Assembly: GCA_039028615.1 (NCBI GenBank)
Contig: JBCCHT010000086.1
Span: forward strand, 1 to 12,729
DNA from: Myxococcota bacterium
Lineage (GTDB): Bacteria > Myxococcota_A > Polyangia > Nannocystales > Nannocystaceae
DNA: 12,729 nt
Direction: 5' to 3'
The first letter of the stretch is position 1, and each line of letters begins with the position of its first letter. Below, piece by piece: positions 5,197 to 12,239 of this stretch. Made by a program: the position numbers and the translations under genes. The notes beneath the pieces were generated by a model that worked only from the letters and a program-made list of their open reading frames with translations, was not told the DNA's origin and did not search any database.

Positions 5197-7122
5197 TCAG
5201 CTCTCCCAATCAAAGAACCTAAAGTGAAACCCATCATCCGTGACCGAGTGGTCACTGGTGAGTCGCAGGTCGATCGCCTGCCGATTGCGCCTCCCCGCGA
5301 CCTGGCGGGTTGCTGGCGTGTCGCTGAACTGTGGGCTCGTGTGCACGCCGGTCTGGGTGGTGCCGTCGGTCAGGTGCAGGAAGTCGAAGCTAGGCTCGAG
5401 CTCGAGGTAGTCGCCGTGGAGGGTGACGTCGCTGGCGGTGGCGGGTAGGCCGACGATGTAGCGTCCGTCGCTATGGTTGGCGTAGGGATGGTCGGTGACG
5501 ATGTCGAGGTAGACGCGGTGGCCCCAGGTGTTGGGCTCGCAGACACCGGCGAGGTCGGCGAGATCGAGCTGGTCACCGAGCTCGAGGGCGGTGCTGCGGT
5601 TGGGTCGTGGGTTGCATTCTTGGGCGAAGAACGTGTACGGACTGGTGGGGATGTCGGGGCAGCCGACGTGGCTGGGACCGCCGCAGGTCGTGCGGTCGTC
5701 GACGCTGCCGTCGCCATCGAGATCCATGGGGTTGGGGATGACGTCGATCTGGAGCGAGTACTCTCCCGTCGCTCCGTTGTGACCGTAGACGTGGGCATAC
5801 ATGACGGACGCACCCGCTCCGCCCGCGGTGGCGGACACGGTCTCGGTGTTGCCGTAGGACTGTGAGGCATCGACTTGGTGGCCGCCGTCGTCGTAGAGCT
5901 TCAGGTCGAGGTCGCCGGCGGTGCCGTCGAACGCGATGGTGACCTCGACGTCGTCGGTGCCATAGACGGGGATGGCGATGAAGTCGTCGTCCCAGCTCCC
6001 GTCGATGCGACGGTAGGTGCGGCCATTGTCGCCTTGTCGTACGCCCAGAGACTCGTAGATTGCCGTTCCGCGCTGTTGGGGCTGCAGCGAGATCGGGCGA
6101 TCGAAGACGTTGCCCATGAAGTTGTTGGGCTCACCCACGTCGCGGAAGCGGCCCATGGTGTCGAGGGTGACGACGCTCTCGGGCGCGCGGTGGCTGGTGT
6201 GATTGTCGGGCACGGCATTGACGACGTTGCAGGTGCCGTTGGGCACGTAGTCGGTCTCCCCGCGCACGAGGATGCCGACGACGTCGCCGCTGGCTTCGTC
6301 GAAGACGGGCGAGCCCGAGTGCCCGCCGAAGGTGTCGGTGTTGGCCCGCAAGCCCCAGGTCTCGAGCGACCGCACCTCGCCACCACCGTCGATCTTCTTG
6401 AGCAGGCGACTGCCGTGACCGATGACGACCAGATCGTCACCCGCGGTCATGGACGGGCTGGGATCGACGGGCAAACCAGGCCGACCGGTATCGCGATCGA
6501 GGTCGAATACGGCGTAGTCGATGCCATCGGGAGTGTAGTGGTAGTCGACCACGCGCTCGCATCGGAAGACGTCCTCGGTGGAAATCTCGTCGCGTTGGCC
6601 ACCCGGGTTCAGCTCGAAGTCGAAGGCGACGATCATGTCGTCGCACTCGGCTTGTAGGGTTGCCGGGTCACCATCGATGTCGTTGGCGGGCGATTTGTAG
6701 AAACAATGGCCGGCGGTGACCATGCGCGTGGGGCTGATGAGCCACCCGGTACAGTCGCCCTGCACGGCGATGGCCTGGTTCTCGAAGGCTTCACCCGGGC
6801 ACAGGTTGCGCGAGTTCCCGAGGGTGTCCTCGGGGAAGGTCACGGCCCCGGTGTTCGGGTCGACGGTGAGCACGGGGTTGGCGGAGAGGGCCTCGTCCAG
6901 GATGAGCGCGACGGACTCGGACCGCTCGCGCATGCCCATGTCCGGGTAGTTGTGGGGGTCGAGCCGATCGTCGGTACCGTAGACGACCCGCTCGGTGACC
7001 TCCTCGAGTTCGTCGTCGAACCCGAGCTCGTCCTCGGTGTCGGCCACGCAGGCGGGAAGCAGGAGGGCAGCACCCAAGGCGAGCAATGCAGTACGCGAAC
7101 GCGCGTCGGAATTGATGATCAT
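5197..7122 (-). CDS. Lipoprotein trypsin-like (S1) serine protease with PPC-like, Cys-rich and CUB-like C-terminal domains, 641 aa
   Basis: GAGGAG RBS before ATG 7122; lipobox LLPAC; catalytic motifs TAGHC (His), DYAVF (Asp), DTFGGHSGSPV (Ser); PPC-like DLDLKLYDDGG…YAHVYG…YSLQI; CUB-like LEPSFDFLHLTDG…LRLTSDHSVTDDGF. Confidence 0.9.
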   Translation of the reverse strand: MIINSDARSRTALLALGAALLLPACVADTEDELGFDDELEEVTERVVYGTDDRLDPHNYPDMGMRERSESVALILDEALSANPVLTVDPNTGAVTFPEDTLGNSRNLCPGEAFENQAIAVQGDCTGWLISPTRMVTAGHCFYKSPANDIDGDPATLQAECDDMIVAFDFELNPGGQRDEISTEDVFRCERVVDYHYTPDGIDYAVFDLDRDTGRPGLPVDPSPSMTAGDDLVVIGHGSRLLKKIDGGGEVRSLETWGLRANTDTFGGHSGSPVFDEASGDVVGILVRGETDYVPNGTCNVVNAVPDNHTSHRAPESVVTLDTMGRFRDVGEPNNFMGNVFDRPISLQPQQRGTAIYESLGVRQGDNGRTYRRIDGSWDDDFIAIPVYGTDDVEVTIAFDGTAGDLDLKLYDDGGHQVDASQSYGNTETVSATAGGAGASVMYAHVYGHNGATGEYSLQIDVIPNPMDLDGDGSVDDRTTCGGPSHVGCPDIPTSPYTFFAQECNPRPNRSTALELGDQLDLADLAGVCEPNTWGHRVYLDIVTDHPYANHSDGRYIVGLPATASDVTLHGDYLELEPSFDFLHLTDGTTQTGVHTSPQFSDTPATRQVAGRRNRQAIDLRLTSDHSVTDDGFHFRFFDWES

Positions 7123-7337
7123 GACGGTCGTCTCCTCGAAGGGGCTCGATGAAGCGCGAGCGCACCACACGACAGTGCGTGGCCTCGCGACTTGGGGGCG
7201 GGGCGCCACTTCAGGCGCTGCCATCGAGCCGTCGACTGCGAAGTCCGGGTCGACCGGGGAGGGATTGCGGAACCCGCAAAAAAGACGGGCATGCTCGACC
7301 GCGCGACGCGAAAGCCACGCGGGGCGCGGTCACGGGC

Positions 7338-7343
7338 TATACT
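7338..7343 (+). promoter_or_regulatory. -10 box TATACT, probably driving a leaderless transcript
   Basis: TATACT lies 7 nt before in-frame GTG 7351; no Shine-Dalgarno sequence present. Confidence 0.5.
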
Positions 7344-7350
7344 CCGCGTG

Positions 7351-7980
7351 GTGCTCACCTGGAGCCTGACCTTCGGCCTGCTGATGGCAGGACCCACGCC
7401 GCCCTGCCCGATCGACGCCGTGGCCGATCGAGTCGCGGAGCTTGCTCCCGACCTCGGACGACCTCAGCCGACCTTCGACGACGGCGTGCTCTCGCTGGAG
7501 TTCTCGCGCAAGGACGAAGGCGCGATCGCTCTGTTGACGGTGCAGCTGGCCGACGGCCAGATGGCGACGGTGGGCACGTCGCCGGTCGTCAAAGAGGTCC
7601 GCGAGTCGCTCAACGAGCTCGGGCCGAAGCTGGCCACGAACCAGGACGTCCTCCAGGCGCTGGTCCAGTGCCCCGCGGGAAGTACGACCGCGCAGGCGCG
7701 AGCCGATGCGTGGGAGAAGACCTTCCACGAGAAACGGAACGAGCCGAAGCCGGAGCCAAACCGAGAGCTCGAGCCGGAGCCCGAGCCGAGCCACGGTGCT
7801 CACGACGCATCCGAGCGCGAGGTCGCCGAGCAGGAAAACGCGGCCGAGGCCGACGACGGCGCGGGCGACGAGGCTGACCCCGAGCAATCGAGCCAGGCGC
7901 TTTGGCTCACCATCGGGGGCGCAGCGGTCCTGCTCGTCCTGTTCTTCTTGCTTGCGCGTCGCCGGACCTCCGACGATTGA
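7351..7980 (+). CDS. Exported protein with acidic Pro/Glu linker and C-terminal membrane anchor, ~209 aa
   Basis: Hydrophobic N-terminus (LTWSLTFGLLMAG), two Cys, EPKPEP…EPEPEP and D/E-rich stalk, then TM helix LWLTIGGAAVLLVLFFLLA followed by RRR. Confidence 0.75.
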   Translation: MLTWSLTFGLLMAGPTPPCPIDAVADRVAELAPDLGRPQPTFDDGVLSLEFSRKDEGAIALLTVQLADGQMATVGTSPVVKEVRESLNELGPKLATNQDVLQALVQCPAGSTTAQARADAWEKTFHEKRNEPKPEPNRELEPEPEPSHGAHDASEREVAEQENAAEADDGAGDEADPEQSSQALWLTIGGAAVLLVLFFLLARRRTSDD

Positions 7981-7984
7981 CGGC

Positions 7985-9298
7985 ATGAGCACGGGGCCGA
8001 CCGCGATCGTCGTAGGAGCCGGAATCGCCGGCCTCACCGCGGCGTTTCGCCTCCAGCAAGCAGGCTTTGCCGTGCGCGTGCTCGAGGCGGAGGCGGTCGT
8101 CGGCGGCCGCATGAGCTCGATCGAGTTCGGCGGCTTCGTGATGAACCGAGCGGCCACCGTGCTGCCAGGCTCCTACCGGGCCATCCTCGAGCTCGCGGCG
8201 GAGGTCGGCTTCGAAGGACTCGAGCGCTTCGACGGGACCATCGGCATCGTGCGGGACGGCGTGATCCATCGGATGCGCTCCGATCATCTCGCGCTCGATG
8301 GCTTCCGTACCAAGCTGCTGTCGTGGATGAGCAAGCTACGACTGAGTCGACTCGCCTTCGATGCGCTGCGCATCCGGGGCAAGCTCGGGCACGACGACAT
8401 CAGCGTGGCCGCCCCCTTCGACACGCAGACGGCCGAGGAGTACGGCGCGCGACACTTCAACGACGAGAGCCGGGAGTACGCGATCCGCCCCGTCATCCGC
8501 GGCTTGGCCCCCGACGCGTCCATCGTCGAGTTCTTCAATGCGTCCATCAACATCCTCGGGGCGGGCTTCATTCGGTATCCGGGGGGCATCGGTTTTCTGA
8601 CCGAAGCGCTCGCGCAACGGCTCTCGGTGACGACGGAGGCCCGCGTCCTCCCGGTTCGGCGCGAGGGTGAGCGCGCCCGCGTGCAGTGGGAGCACGCGGG
8701 CGAGGTCCATGCCGCGGACGTCGATGCCTGTGTGCTCGCGGTGCCCTCCGTCGTGGCTGCGAAGCTCCTGGCCGACGCGGACCCTGGCCTCTCGGAGCTG
8801 CTGTCGAAGTCGCTGCGTTACACCACCGCCTTCGTCGCACACTTCGGGCTCTCGTGCGCTCCCGCGGAGCCCTCCATGTTCTTGATGCTGCCGAAGTCCG
8901 AGGATCCCGGGATGTACTCCCTGGTCTTCGACCACAACCTGCAGCCCGACCGTGTGCCCGAGGGTAAGGGATTGCTGGCGACCAGCTGGGAGCACGACTG
9001 GTGCGAGCAGCGGCTGGAGTCGAGCGACGACGAGCTGATCGAGCAGATGTTGCCTTCGGTGGAAGCACTCGTGCCCGAGGTCCGCGAGCACCTCGAGTTC
9101 ACCCGCGTTCATCGTTGGCGACCCGGCGTGTTGCGAGGCTCGCCCGGCTACTGCACGGCAATCGCCGAGCTCGTCGAACGACTCGAACAAAGCGGCCCGG
9201 TGCAGCTAGCGGGGGACTTCTTCACCACCTCGAGCACCGATGGAAGCGTGGTCTCGGCCGAGCGCGCGGTGACCCGACTGATCGATCGCATGGGGTGA
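7985..9298 (+). CDS. FAD-dependent oxidoreductase, protoporphyrinogen oxidase (HemY)-like / flavin amine oxidase superfamily, 437 aa
   Basis: N-terminal VVGAGIAGLTAA (GxGxxG), EAEAVVGGRM, central YPGGIGFLTEALA and C-terminal LAGDFF. ATG 7985 follows the upstream stop after a 4-nt gap. Substrate is not assignable. Confidence 0.88.
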   Translation: MSTGPTAIVVGAGIAGLTAAFRLQQAGFAVRVLEAEAVVGGRMSSIEFGGFVMNRAATVLPGSYRAILELAAEVGFEGLERFDGTIGIVRDGVIHRMRSDHLALDGFRTKLLSWMSKLRLSRLAFDALRIRGKLGHDDISVAAPFDTQTAEEYGARHFNDESREYAIRPVIRGLAPDASIVEFFNASINILGAGFIRYPGGIGFLTEALAQRLSVTTEARVLPVRREGERARVQWEHAGEVHAADVDACVLAVPSVVAAKLLADADPGLSELLSKSLRYTTAFVAHFGLSCAPAEPSMFLMLPKSEDPGMYSLVFDHNLQPDRVPEGKGLLATSWEHDWCEQRLESSDDELIEQMLPSVEALVPEVREHLEFTRVHRWRPGVLRGSPGYCTAIAELVERLEQSGPVQLAGDFFTTSSTDGSVVSAERAVTRLIDRMG

Positions 9299-9471
9299 GC
9301 GAGCCGAGTCGCACGATCCCGGACGGCCGATAGCCGCCAGGGGAACGTCGATTTCAGTCGAGTCTCTGATTTTTTACTTTGTCGCGTCACGCCCCGCGGC
9401 GACGCCGTCCAGGGATGGGTACCTCCGTCGCCGTGCCCCACGCGCGGTCGATGAACAGGAGACCCACCATC

Positions 9472-10749
9472 ATGCGACGTTTCAATTTCAGCGCCCCCCT
9501 GACGACGGTCCCCGTGGCCGCGATCGCCTGGTTTTCCCTCACCTCGACATCCATGGCCGCGGATGTCGGCCGGGTGACTCGCTTCGACGCTCCCGTGCCC
9601 ACCCCGACGGTCGTGCAGACCAATAGCCGGGTGGGCGTCGACTTTGCCGTGGAAGCGGAGTTCGATCCGAACGACCCCTTCGAATGTCGATGCGTGGAGT
9701 ACCGCCAGCAGGTCCGGGGCAAGTTCACCAAGGACGGCAACAAGCTACGGCACATGCTCACCCTCGATGACCCCGACAACCCGGGCAGCACGAAGGAAGT
9801 GGAGATGTCCGAGACCGATTTCCTGCCCGACTCTCCCGACTACGGCAACGGCCGCGTGCGCTACGGGCATCGAGGCGAGGCCAAGTCCGCGACCGAGAAC
9901 TACACCAACGGAGGAACCGGGACGAACGCCAACGACGAGAATCGGGCAACGGGATGCAAGTACGCGCTCACCGACGGGCCCGGGATCACGAACCTGCAGC
10001 CGGGTCACACGTACGTCGTGGACCTCGACTTCGCCGGAACGACCCTCGGTGTGTGCGAGGCCTGTGACACCTGCGTGAGCAAGACCTGGGAAGCCAACGC
10101 TACCCACACGACCCCGGCCGCACCCGCTCCGGGTGGCGGAGGAGGCGGAGGCGGAGGCGGAGGCGGAGGCGGATGCAACATCGGCAGCGATGCGCCCAGT
10201 CCCGCCCCGTTCATGATGTTGGGCTTGCTTCCGCTGCTGGCCTGGAGGCGACGCTACACTGCGATGGCCTTGTCTGGGCTCGTGGCTCTTTCGGTGAGTG
10301 GATGCGTGGGCGGAACTTCTGGAACGAGTAGCGCGGGTGGCGGTGGTGGTGGCGGGAGCTCGACGCCGGGCTCGTCGGCGTTCGGCCCCGGCAACTGGAC
10401 GATCCTCAACCCGGTACGGACCGGCTTCGCGGGCAAGGAGGCCTCGGGCGTCAGAGCATTGCCAGCCCTGACGGTGGGCGACAACGGCATCATGGTCGAC
10501 GTTCAGATGGCCGCGCCCGGTGACGGCCCCGGTGCGCCAGTGGGCTCCGATCTGAGCATGCAGGTGCGCGTCGGCGGGTCCAACGTGGCCGAGCTCGAGG
10601 GCCCCGGCAGCGGCCCGGTGCTCTCCGTTCAGGGCGCCGCGCATCCGGTTTGGTACTTCGCGCGAGGCACGGGCGATGTCGAGCTACTCGAGTTCACCTA
10701 CAAGGGCGACTCGATCGTGTGGAAACCGGCGGAAGGTACCCCCCTGTAG
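9472..10749 (+). CDS. Secreted 425-aa protein with an internal MYXO-CTERM-like signal followed by a second, lipoprotein-type signal and domain
   Basis: AGGAG RBS (9457-9461); Sec signal MRRFNF…TSMAA; Cys-containing domain; G14-C-NIGSDAPSPAPFMMLGLLPLLAWRRR; then YTAMALSGLVALSVSG-C, a Gly/Ser tether and a ~115-aa domain. Confidence 0.85.
   Translation: MRRFNFSAPLTTVPVAAIAWFSLTSTSMAADVGRVTRFDAPVPTPTVVQTNSRVGVDFAVEAEFDPNDPFECRCVEYRQQVRGKFTKDGNKLRHMLTLDDPDNPGSTKEVEMSETDFLPDSPDYGNGRVRYGHRGEAKSATENYTNGGTGTNANDENRATGCKYALTDGPGITNLQPGHTYVVDLDFAGTTLGVCEACDTCVSKTWEANATHTTPAAPAPGGGGGGGGGGGGGGCNIGSDAPSPAPFMMLGLLPLLAWRRRYTAMALSGLVALSVSGCVGGTSGTSSAGGGGGGGSSTPGSSAFGPGNWTILNPVRTGFAGKEASGVRALPALTVGDNGIMVDVQMAAPGDGPGAPVGSDLSMQVRVGGSNVAELEGPGSGPVLSVQGAAHPVWYFARGTGDVELLEFTYKGDSIVWKPAEGTPL
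10132..10173 (+). repeat. Poly-Gly14 tract containing (GGAGGC)5
   Basis: GGT GGC GGA, then GGAGGC x5 (10141-10170), then GGA; in frame. Confidence 0.9.
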
Positions 10750-10844
10750 GCCCGGCCACGAGGGCCGAGCAGGCGCGGAGTGAATCGCGGAGCTCTGGAT
10801 GAAAAAGAGTCCGCACATCCGCGGACATCTGGAGAACCCCTCTA

Positions 10845-12239
10845 GTGATGACGCTCTTCGCTGCTCGCTCGGCCTCGCTCGTTTTGTTGTTCCCCCTGGC
10901 CGCCTCGTCGCTCGGTTGCGTGCAGGTCGTCGACTTCGGCGGTGCAGACACGGAGACGGACACCGATCCGGTGGCGAGCACCAACCCCGCCGCCACCCCG
11001 AACCCGAGTGCCGACGACGGTACCGGCTCTTCGGCGACGACGAGCACACCCGAGGACTCTACGGGCGACACCGGATCCAGCAGCGACGAAACGGGAGGCA
11101 CGCCGGTCGACCCCCCCGACGGCGGCGGTGCGATCTGGCCCGCGCCGCTGGGCGCGGCGGTCCACGGCATCGCGCCGCTGGACGACGGCGGCATGGTCGT
11201 CGTGGGGCGGGTGGAGAACGAGCAGGGGCGGTTCGGAGCCGTGCGTGTGCTCGATGCCGCCGGAAAAGTCGTGCACGATCATGCCCCCGCCGAGCTCGAG
11301 GATCTGTATTTGTGGGACGTGTGCGTGCGCCCCGACGGCAGCCTCTTGGCGATCGGGATCGTGGCGGACTCCGACGGGACCGACTTCGAGAACAAGGCGT
11401 ACGCGGTCTTTCTCGATGACACGGGCGCGGTCCTGTCGACGGACGTCTACGACCCCTTTTTTGTGTACCTCGACTATGTGTCGATGGTGGACATGCCACG
11501 CCTGGTCTGCAACGGGAAGGAACGCGCCTGGGCGGTGCTGTCGTATCTCAACGAAAAAGGGCGAGAGCCACTCTTCACGCTGGCGATCGAGTCGAAGGGC
11601 TTCGGCAACCAGGGGCAGGGCGCCTGGCACTACGGACAGAGCGCTCTCATCGGGATGGGTGGCGACCCCACGGGGGGCTACCACTACGCCGTGAACGCCG
11701 AGGTGTACCCCAAGGACGTGCTGCGCGTGATGTGGCAGAACCACTCCGCGGATGGGCTCGTGGGCCATACCAACTCCATTCACTCCCCCGAGCTTCCGGG
11801 CGAAGACTCGCTGCCTCTCGCGTTTCATGCAGTCGGTGAGCGCGGTGTCGTCCTCGGTTCGGACGCGCCGACCGACACCCACTGGCTGGTCGCCTACGAT
11901 CTCGAGGGCAACGAGCTTTGGCGCACCGATGACCTCCCCGCCCCCTCCGAAGCCTGGCACCCCCAGCAGATGGGCGTGGCGAGCGATGGCCGAGTCGCGA
12001 TCGCAGGATGGGCCGGACCCGATACGCAGCAAGCCGTGAGCCTGCTGGTCTTCGACGCCGACGGCAGTCGCTCGTGGTCGGCCGAGTACGACGACCTGGA
12101 AAAACCCGGGTACTCACCGAGCCACCTGGAGGTCGGTGAGATCGTGGTGACCCCTGACCGCATCGATCTCGGCGGGAGTTTCCGGCCGTTCGCGGACGAG
12201 GACACGACCTACGGCTGGATCCTTCGCATCGACGGCTGA
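10845..12239 (+). CDS. Lipoprotein with Ser/Thr/Asp-rich tether and probable beta-propeller domain, 464 aa
   Basis: GGAG at 10831; lipobox SSLGC; low-complexity DTETDTD…TGDTGSSSDETGG; repeated blades such as DDGGMVVVG, PDGSLLAIG, YDLEGNELW, SDGRVAIAG, FDADGSRSW. Confidence 0.85.
   Translation: MMTLFAARSASLVLLFPLAASSLGCVQVVDFGGADTETDTDPVASTNPAATPNPSADDGTGSSATTSTPEDSTGDTGSSSDETGGTPVDPPDGGGAIWPAPLGAAVHGIAPLDDGGMVVVGRVENEQGRFGAVRVLDAAGKVVHDHAPAELEDLYLWDVCVRPDGSLLAIGIVADSDGTDFENKAYAVFLDDTGAVLSTDVYDPFFVYLDYVSMVDMPRLVCNGKERAWAVLSYLNEKGREPLFTLAIESKGFGNQGQGAWHYGQSALIGMGGDPTGGYHYAVNAEVYPKDVLRVMWQNHSADGLVGHTNSIHSPELPGEDSLPLAFHAVGERGVVLGSDAPTDTHWLVAYDLEGNELWRTDDLPAPSEAWHPQQMGVASDGRVAIAGWAGPDTQQAVSLLVFDADGSRSWSAEYDDLEKPGYSPSHLEVGEIVVTPDRIDLGGSFRPFADEDTTYGWILRIDG

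Follow-up and report, generated by a model that had tools for sequence, protein, structure and literature searches.

The MYXO-CTERM tag normally closes a protein, with only 0-15 residues behind it. An open reading frame (ORF) at positions 9472-10749 of a contig from a Myxococcota bacterium (Nannocystaceae) continues for 164 residues beyond such a tag and passes directly into a hydrophobic stretch that ends in a lipobox. Does this ORF encode a single precursor that is resolved into two lipid-anchored proteins, or does its layout reflect a membrane hairpin, an accidental read-through, or an artefact of assembly? The window referred to below is the whole stretch of 12,729 nucleotides that was analysed, and all positions are counted from its first nucleotide. 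The source genome was recovered from a marine metagenome and measures 12.3 Mb.

A MYXO-CTERM tag joined to a lipoprotein signal

The 425-residue translation of ORF 9472-10749 contains no internal stop. Its features are given below; the Shine-Dalgarno-like motif and the two tethers were read directly from the sequence.

9457-9461, + strand: AGGAG, Shine-Dalgarno-like, 10 nt upstream of the ATG at 9472
9472-10749, + strand: ORF of 425 aa, candidate two-protein precursor; stop codon at 10747-10749
9472-9558, + strand: Sec signal-like N-terminal segment, residues 1-29, ending SMA/AD (putative cleavage at the slash); hydropathy peak at residues 10-23
9559-10116, + strand: domain A, approximately residues 30-215; six Cys; predicted mostly beta
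10117-10173, + strand: tether of Pro/Ala and Gly14 (G14 at 10132-10173)
10162-10254, + strand: internal MYXO-CTERM tag with Gly-Cys235 (10174), spacer NIGSDAPSPAP, helix FMMLGLLPLLAW, and RRR (10246-10254); TIGR03901 match
10244-10266, + strand: possible two-gene relic, tentatively interpreted, with GGAGG at 10244-10248, TAC at 10255-10257 (one base from a stop codon), and an in-frame ATG at 10264
10246-10305, + strand: internal lipoprotein signal with RRR as n-region, 13 uncharged residues, hydrophobic YTAMALSGLVALS, and lipobox VSG-Cys278 (10303)
10306-10365, + strand: tether of Gly/Ser/Thr including Gly7 (10336-10356)
10366-10746, + strand: domain B, approximately residues 299-425 (127 residues); predicted all-beta

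By inspection, the N-terminus combines a basic start, a moderately hydrophobic stretch, and the motif SMA/A. The hydropathy profile of the ORF shows this N-terminal stretch and two peaks that flank RRR, the second of which spans residues 263-281. GC content at third codon positions is 0.84 in domain A, 0.86 in domain B, and 0.84-0.86 in the adjacent genes, which indicates gene-like codon bias in both domains. The initial annotation had named the N-terminal signal, G14, Cys235, RRR, VSG-Cys278, and G7, and each of these lies where it had been placed. The Gly tethers that it described as mirroring each other are likewise real but ordinary, since most terminal tags are preceded by low-complexity linkers, and stand-alone lipoproteins have such linkers behind their Cys.

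The tag had been proposed for residues ~230-262, and TIGR03901 matched residues 231-261. The score was 23.5 bits in a genome search, above the curated cut-off of 20, and 19.4 bits, just below it, when the whole protein was scanned with hmmscan. Because these scores lie around the cut-off, we call the tag borderline yet recognisable. Three sequence traits of MYXO-CTERM are present, namely the Cys motif (one Cys, versus the common CxC), the hydrophobic helix FMMLGLLPLLAW, and the Arg cluster. With the MYXO-CTERM/myxosortase system (TIGR03901; MrtX with TraA, MXAN_4924; MrtZ here) the ORF further shares a signal-like N-terminus, a cognate enzyme encoded in the genome, and a type II secretion system; it departs from that system in that the tag does not sit at the extreme C-terminus.

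Lipoprotein signals comprise a basic n-region, 7-22 uncharged residues, and a lipobox of the form [LVI][ASTVIG][GAS]C. The stretch that follows RRR satisfies this strict rule. It has in common with substrates of the Lgt/LspA/Lnt pathway the basic n-region, the uncharged h-region, the strict lipobox, and a low-complexity tether. The difference is that this Sec/SPII-type signal begins at residue 259 instead of the chain N-terminus, with no well-spaced internal start codon, and that the tail of another sorting signal provides its n-region. Scanning with Pfam and NCBIfam gave no signal-model match for the internal lipoprotein signal.

Integrity of the junction and nature of the two domains

An artefact of assembly or sequencing that removed a stop codon or shifted the frame might produce the same layout. 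The source is a metagenome assembly, and contigs of sequencing run X1 left the Gly repeat at 10128-10182 unbridged; the repeat is, however, composed of whole codons. The lost-stop check suggested in the initial annotation came out in favour of the ORF: a separately assembled contig from run X1, which may be the source sample itself, was identical to the window over 10183-11400, RRR region included, with 0 differences, no gaps, and a depth of ~20. The assembler therefore lost no stop at RRR. The same layout is also found in P0005, on an 11.1-Mb contig, and in locus L266 of the one-contig genome G074, and we consider an artefact very improbable.

Accidental read-through deserves closer attention. 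A stop codon may recently have changed to TAC, in which case domain B would still have a translation start of its own, at 10264, or else the two products would include a non-functional one. This reading has real support in the sequence: TAC at 10255 is followed three codons on by ATG at 10264, GGAGG lies at 10244-10248, this orphan gene had no relative in the searches described below, and its 12.7-kb contig has 65.5% GC versus 68.3% for the genome. Yet the distance from GGAGG to the ATG is 15 nt, and the product of such a start (MALSGLVALSVSGC) would lack a basic n-region. Even a recent fusion, moreover, would show both signals to the same enzymes.

Searches with the two domains returned little. 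Homologues of the whole ORF or of domain A were absent among proteins of 233-744 aa in the collection searched, and comparison of the ORF with the genomes of 60 relatives gave matches in 4, by the Gly-tether/tag only. Domain A had no homologue in 72 genomes or in the genome contig collection, and domain B had none in 300 genomes; a single 23-residue metagenome match to domain B was dismissed as too short. The family search found no domain-family match for either domain, the PDB fold search found nothing for domain A at E≤0.001, and the Atlas lookup of both domains gave no feature matches and only structure rows below the naming bar. Single-sequence folds of domains A and B were unusable (pLDDT 40 and 37, respectively). 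A suspected likeness between domain A and the C-terminal domains of DUF4157 proteins was unsupported by every search and is not claimed. Because both domains are orphans, the fusion in ORF 9472-10749 could represent a recent stop loss. By analogy with the GH15+GH13 enzyme pair described below, domains A and B may be two partner envelope proteins that are kept co-expressed.

Other genes in the window include a terpene synthase (PF19086; 2854-4251, - strand) that adjoins a small DUF7793/SpoIIAA-like gene (2300-2812, + strand), as well as a trypsin-like protease (5197-7224, - strand) that contains a PPC domain and begins with a lipobox-like sequence. In the product of 7192-7980 (+ strand), which has a Glu-Pro repeat, the C-terminal helix is followed by RRR, but a Cys is lacking; its only matches, to LPXTG and PVV-CTERM, are weak. 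The ORF is flanked by a member of the flavin amine oxidoreductase family (7706-9298, + strand) and by a lipoprotein that matches the delta-60 repeat weakly (10845-12239, + strand), and no tie of either to ORF 9472-10749 was seen. An Rfam scan of the window gave no match; the window contains no promoter-like site, and terminators occur at chance level only.

Internal tags and processing enzymes in the source genome

A TIGR03901 search of the source genome, in which 150 of 401 candidates were scored, gave 117 matches, 94 of them over the cut-off. More than 40 residues follow the tag in three of these 94, and in all three the tag leads directly into a hydrophobic stretch that is followed by a lipobox Cys. 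One is ORF 9472-10749. The second, the C30 protein (G000:C30:51422-56440; L006:5423-10441), joins GH15, tag, lipobox, and a GH13 amylase in 1,672 aa. The third, the C37 protein (G000:C37:92179-95016; L007:5180-8017, - strand; ~945 aa), joins a DUF11-containing module, tag, lipobox, and a second lipoprotein module. Six weak, long-tailed TIGR03901 rows (E>0.6) that lack the tag motif were excluded as non-tags.

The background was drawn from 17,433 RRR positions in long frames, non-coding frames included. A lipobox follows RRR at 57 of these positions (0.33%) under a relaxed rule and at 13 under the strict rule; two TIGR03901 matches of ≤11 bits were omitted as non-tags. Among the internal tags of the source genome, the relaxed rule is passed by 3/3 and the strict rule by 2/3. 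The tag-then-lipobox arrangement of ORF 9472-10749 is not due to chance.

The source genome encodes the myxosortase MrtZ (NF040915, 415.5 bits; cut-off 325), along with over-cut-off matches to LspA (four), Lgt (five), Lnt (two), and GspD (two). The numbers of LspA and Lgt matches imply that a paralogue could serve MYXO-CTERM tags or internal signals. An lspA-lgt-lspA cluster lies at G000:C59:20189-22307.

Recurrence in other genomes

The initial annotation had called for a search of Myxococcota for internal tags followed by a lipobox. The layout recurs, in 9/180 tags of six genomes and in 114 pooled junctions. The first sample started from tags and took the 30 best TIGR03901 matches from each of six other genomes. 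Of these 180 tags, 170 lie at the C-terminus; a 43-residue tail follows one, and nine have more than 300 residues downstream. All nine long internal tags open into a signal (by eye, seven with a lipobox and two with A-x-A), and none of the 180 tags is a long internal one without a following signal. Genomes G467 and G189, which were chosen after a junction hit, contribute six of the nine; the remaining four genomes contribute 3/120, all with a signal.

The second collection was built with a 15-row junction profile and led to 97 cluster representatives. Internal tags are present in 41 of these, and 11 have two or more. Pooling gave 114 distinct internal junctions from ~33 upstream/downstream family pairs. 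This pool is biased towards signals because the profile used to collect most of it covers the second helix; it contains 75 lipobox junctions, 32 A-x-A junctions, and seven unclassified ones, all seven of which still have a hydrophobic stretch. Since ~32 of the 114 are of type I (A-x-A), the layout is not confined to lipoprotein signals. A phylum-wide junction search was positive in 9 of 401 genomes, which gives no prevalence estimate because only 17 candidates were scored per genome.

Several proteins contain more than two modules. P0043, P0038, P0039, P0037, P0047, and P0059 are chains of 3-5 modules, often tandem paralogues, with MYXO-CTERM tags and type I signal peptides between them. P0043 has five tags, four of them internal, in 4,697 aa, and P0059 has three DUF2330 modules. 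A partial protein of 928 aa, P0104, assigned to Planctomycetales by its source, contains four internal PEP-CTERM-like tags, each of which leads via RRR into a signal-like stretch.

Conservation and origin of the fusions

The GH15+GH13 fusion is conserved in 25 other clusters, with identity over the aligned part down to 35%. The order Cys-helix-RRR-helix-lipobox is kept in 26 of 33 matches (919-2,926 aa), one of them the source genome's own gene; the other seven lack the GH15 half. In relatives with separate genes, GH15 has a terminal tag and GH13 an N-terminal lipoprotein signal. A tree built quickly from 39 GH15 domains, in which fused rows were enriched by a length filter, requires four changes between the fused and split states, three of them forced by well-supported branches, which indicates that a covalent link between the halves is not needed.

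The family of the C37 protein (P0003) is fused in 8/60 other genomes. Its split relatives follow the same division: the first half ends in a tag, and the second starts with a lipoprotein signal. In genomes G035 and G018 the halves are two genes that overlap by GTGA or ATGA directly after the tag, and such overlapping pairs would be a natural precursor state of the fusion. ORF 9472-10749 may have originated when two adjacent, coupled genes were joined and the Arg cluster of the tag took the place of the start and the basic residues that the lipoprotein once had.

A start codon with a Shine-Dalgarno motif just 5' of the Arg run was found in 2/42 lipobox junctions, versus a background of 5.9%, and 16/42 have no start codon within the 10 codons before the Arg run. 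On these two counts, we rejected the idea that internal translation starts explain the junctions in general. The second count also weakens the case for accidental read-through. A near-stop codon after the Arg run, like that of ORF 9472-10749 (TAC, then ATG), occurs in only 6/42 junctions, which fits a recent read-through here. We judge read-through to be quite unlikely for this ORF.

Relation to known systems

FbcH, the cytochrome b/c1 precursor of Bradyrhizobium japonicum, is reportedly encoded by one gene and separated into two membrane proteins at an internal signal-like site; unlike ORF 9472-10749, it is said to serve a single fixed respiratory complex and to lack both a C-terminal sorting tag and a lipobox. 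A Haloferax ArtA substrate is said to have a non-terminal tripartite tag, such that a sorting tag of the C-terminal type works in mid-protein, whereas it reportedly belongs to an archaeosortase system and its downstream part is not re-exported. The structural polyprotein of flaviviruses combines a stop-transfer helix, a short basic loop, a signal helix, and a cut by a host peptidase. It shares no homology with the ORF, and it differs in being viral, in its use of eukaryotic signal peptidase, and in the absence of lipid-Cys anchors.

Cleavage of MYXO-CTERM by MrtX has been demonstrated experimentally and depends on the Cys, and internal tags are described as rare in ORFs, according to the portions of PMC11980579 available to us. 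The same portions describe MXAN_5598 of Myxococcus xanthus, a protein listed among vesicle proteins in the available part of PMC4158809, as a likely fusion of two genes with an internal MYXO-CTERM, the N-terminal part of which is proposed to be processed and surface-anchored. MXAN_5598 and ORF 9472-10749 are alike in their internal tag. The second half of MXAN_5598 is a beta-barrel and OmpA module, for which those portions of PMC11980579 name no second signal or cut; in ORF 9472-10749, by contrast, the tag is followed by a lipobox and a 127-residue orphan domain, a putative lipoprotein, with no beta-barrel or OmpA module. Another locus, L161:1-3093, contains, by eye, a tag, a type I signal, a beta-barrel-like region, TSP3 repeats, and an OmpA-like start; its layout resembles that of MXAN_5598, and it has a second signal as well.

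The initial claim that the arrangement lacked any earlier description thus stands in part. An internal MYXO-CTERM is in print (MXAN_5598), which leaves the second signal and the generality as the new elements; neither was found in the available portions of PMC11980579. Literature on MYXO-CTERM, myxosortase, PEP-CTERM, and bacterial polyproteins yielded no paper that describes a tag continuing into a second signal, although an earlier mention may exist, and the words 'internal', 'lipoprotein', 'fusion', and 'polyprotein' are absent from the available text of the Haft preprint (10.1101/2023.06.07.544157). The multi-module chains, too, were not found in print in the sources as available.

A model for processing and its implications

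We propose that ORF 9472-10749 probably encodes one precursor, which a myxosortase and LspA would cut into two lipid-anchored proteins. The topology, lipidations, cuts, and final locations set out here follow the model in the available portions of PMC11980579 and general lipoprotein biology. The N-terminal signal would direct domain A through Sec, and the helix of the tag would act as a stop-transfer sequence that leaves RRR in the cytoplasm. The hydrophobic stretch after RRR would then serve as a second export signal and thread domain B out, such that the chain forms an out-in-out helical hairpin in which Cys235 and Cys278 both face the periplasm. Lipidation and cleavage at Cys278 by Lgt and LspA would produce lipoprotein B (~14.4 kDa before lipid), and lipidation of Cys235 with a cut by MrtZ would produce a C-terminally anchored protein A (~21.5 kDa), which would become available to the type II secretion system for surface transport. 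A residual hairpin of 42 residues (4.4 kDa) would remain after both cuts.

Alternatively, the hairpin could be retained, or just one of its sides could be cut. This would give a two-helix inner-membrane protein with periplasmic domains or, if LspA alone acted, a domain A held by the hairpin. Two short helices linked by RRR make a normal membrane hairpin, and the available portions of PMC11980579 report residual surface localisation without MrtX and propose anchoring by uncleaved tags. A plain anchor, however, would need neither Cys nor lipobox, and both Cys and the lipobox are present in every fused GH15+GH13 and P0003 row; the A-x-A sites are likewise preserved at type I junctions, one of which opens, by eye, into a beta-barrel/OmpA-like module bound to leave the inner membrane. 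We therefore regard a retained or half-cut hairpin as unlikely.

The initial annotation had suggested that a single RRR serves both signals and that two proteases release the two proteins. Recurrence of the layout, its conservation in two other fusion families, the split orthologues, the lack of an excess of internal starts, and the enzymes encoded in the genome all fit that suggestion, in which cleavage and lipidation are the steps that we infer. More tentatively, we lean towards the view that the tag-RRR-signal unit is a general, portable self-processing linker, which would allow several surface proteins to be made as one polyprotein and resolved by host membrane proteases alone, as in flavivirus polyproteins. 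Consistent with this view, the unit joins at least 33 unrelated gene pairs in Myxococcota, is combined with second signals of type II or type I, occurs in chains that reach five modules (4,697 aa), and has a PEP-CTERM version in a Planctomycetales protein.

A linker of ~45 residues that gives two anchored proteins per message would be a useful tool for co-display. If the model is correct, two questions become testable: do Lgt/LspA and myxosortase process signals within a membrane hairpin, and which enzyme attaches lipid to the MYXO-CTERM Cys? The second can be addressed because the hairpin would unite both kinds of Cys in one substrate. Many very long proteins annotated as 'MYXO-CTERM domain' would each represent several proteins, and secreted polyproteins would be a recurring bacterial habit rather than a one-off.
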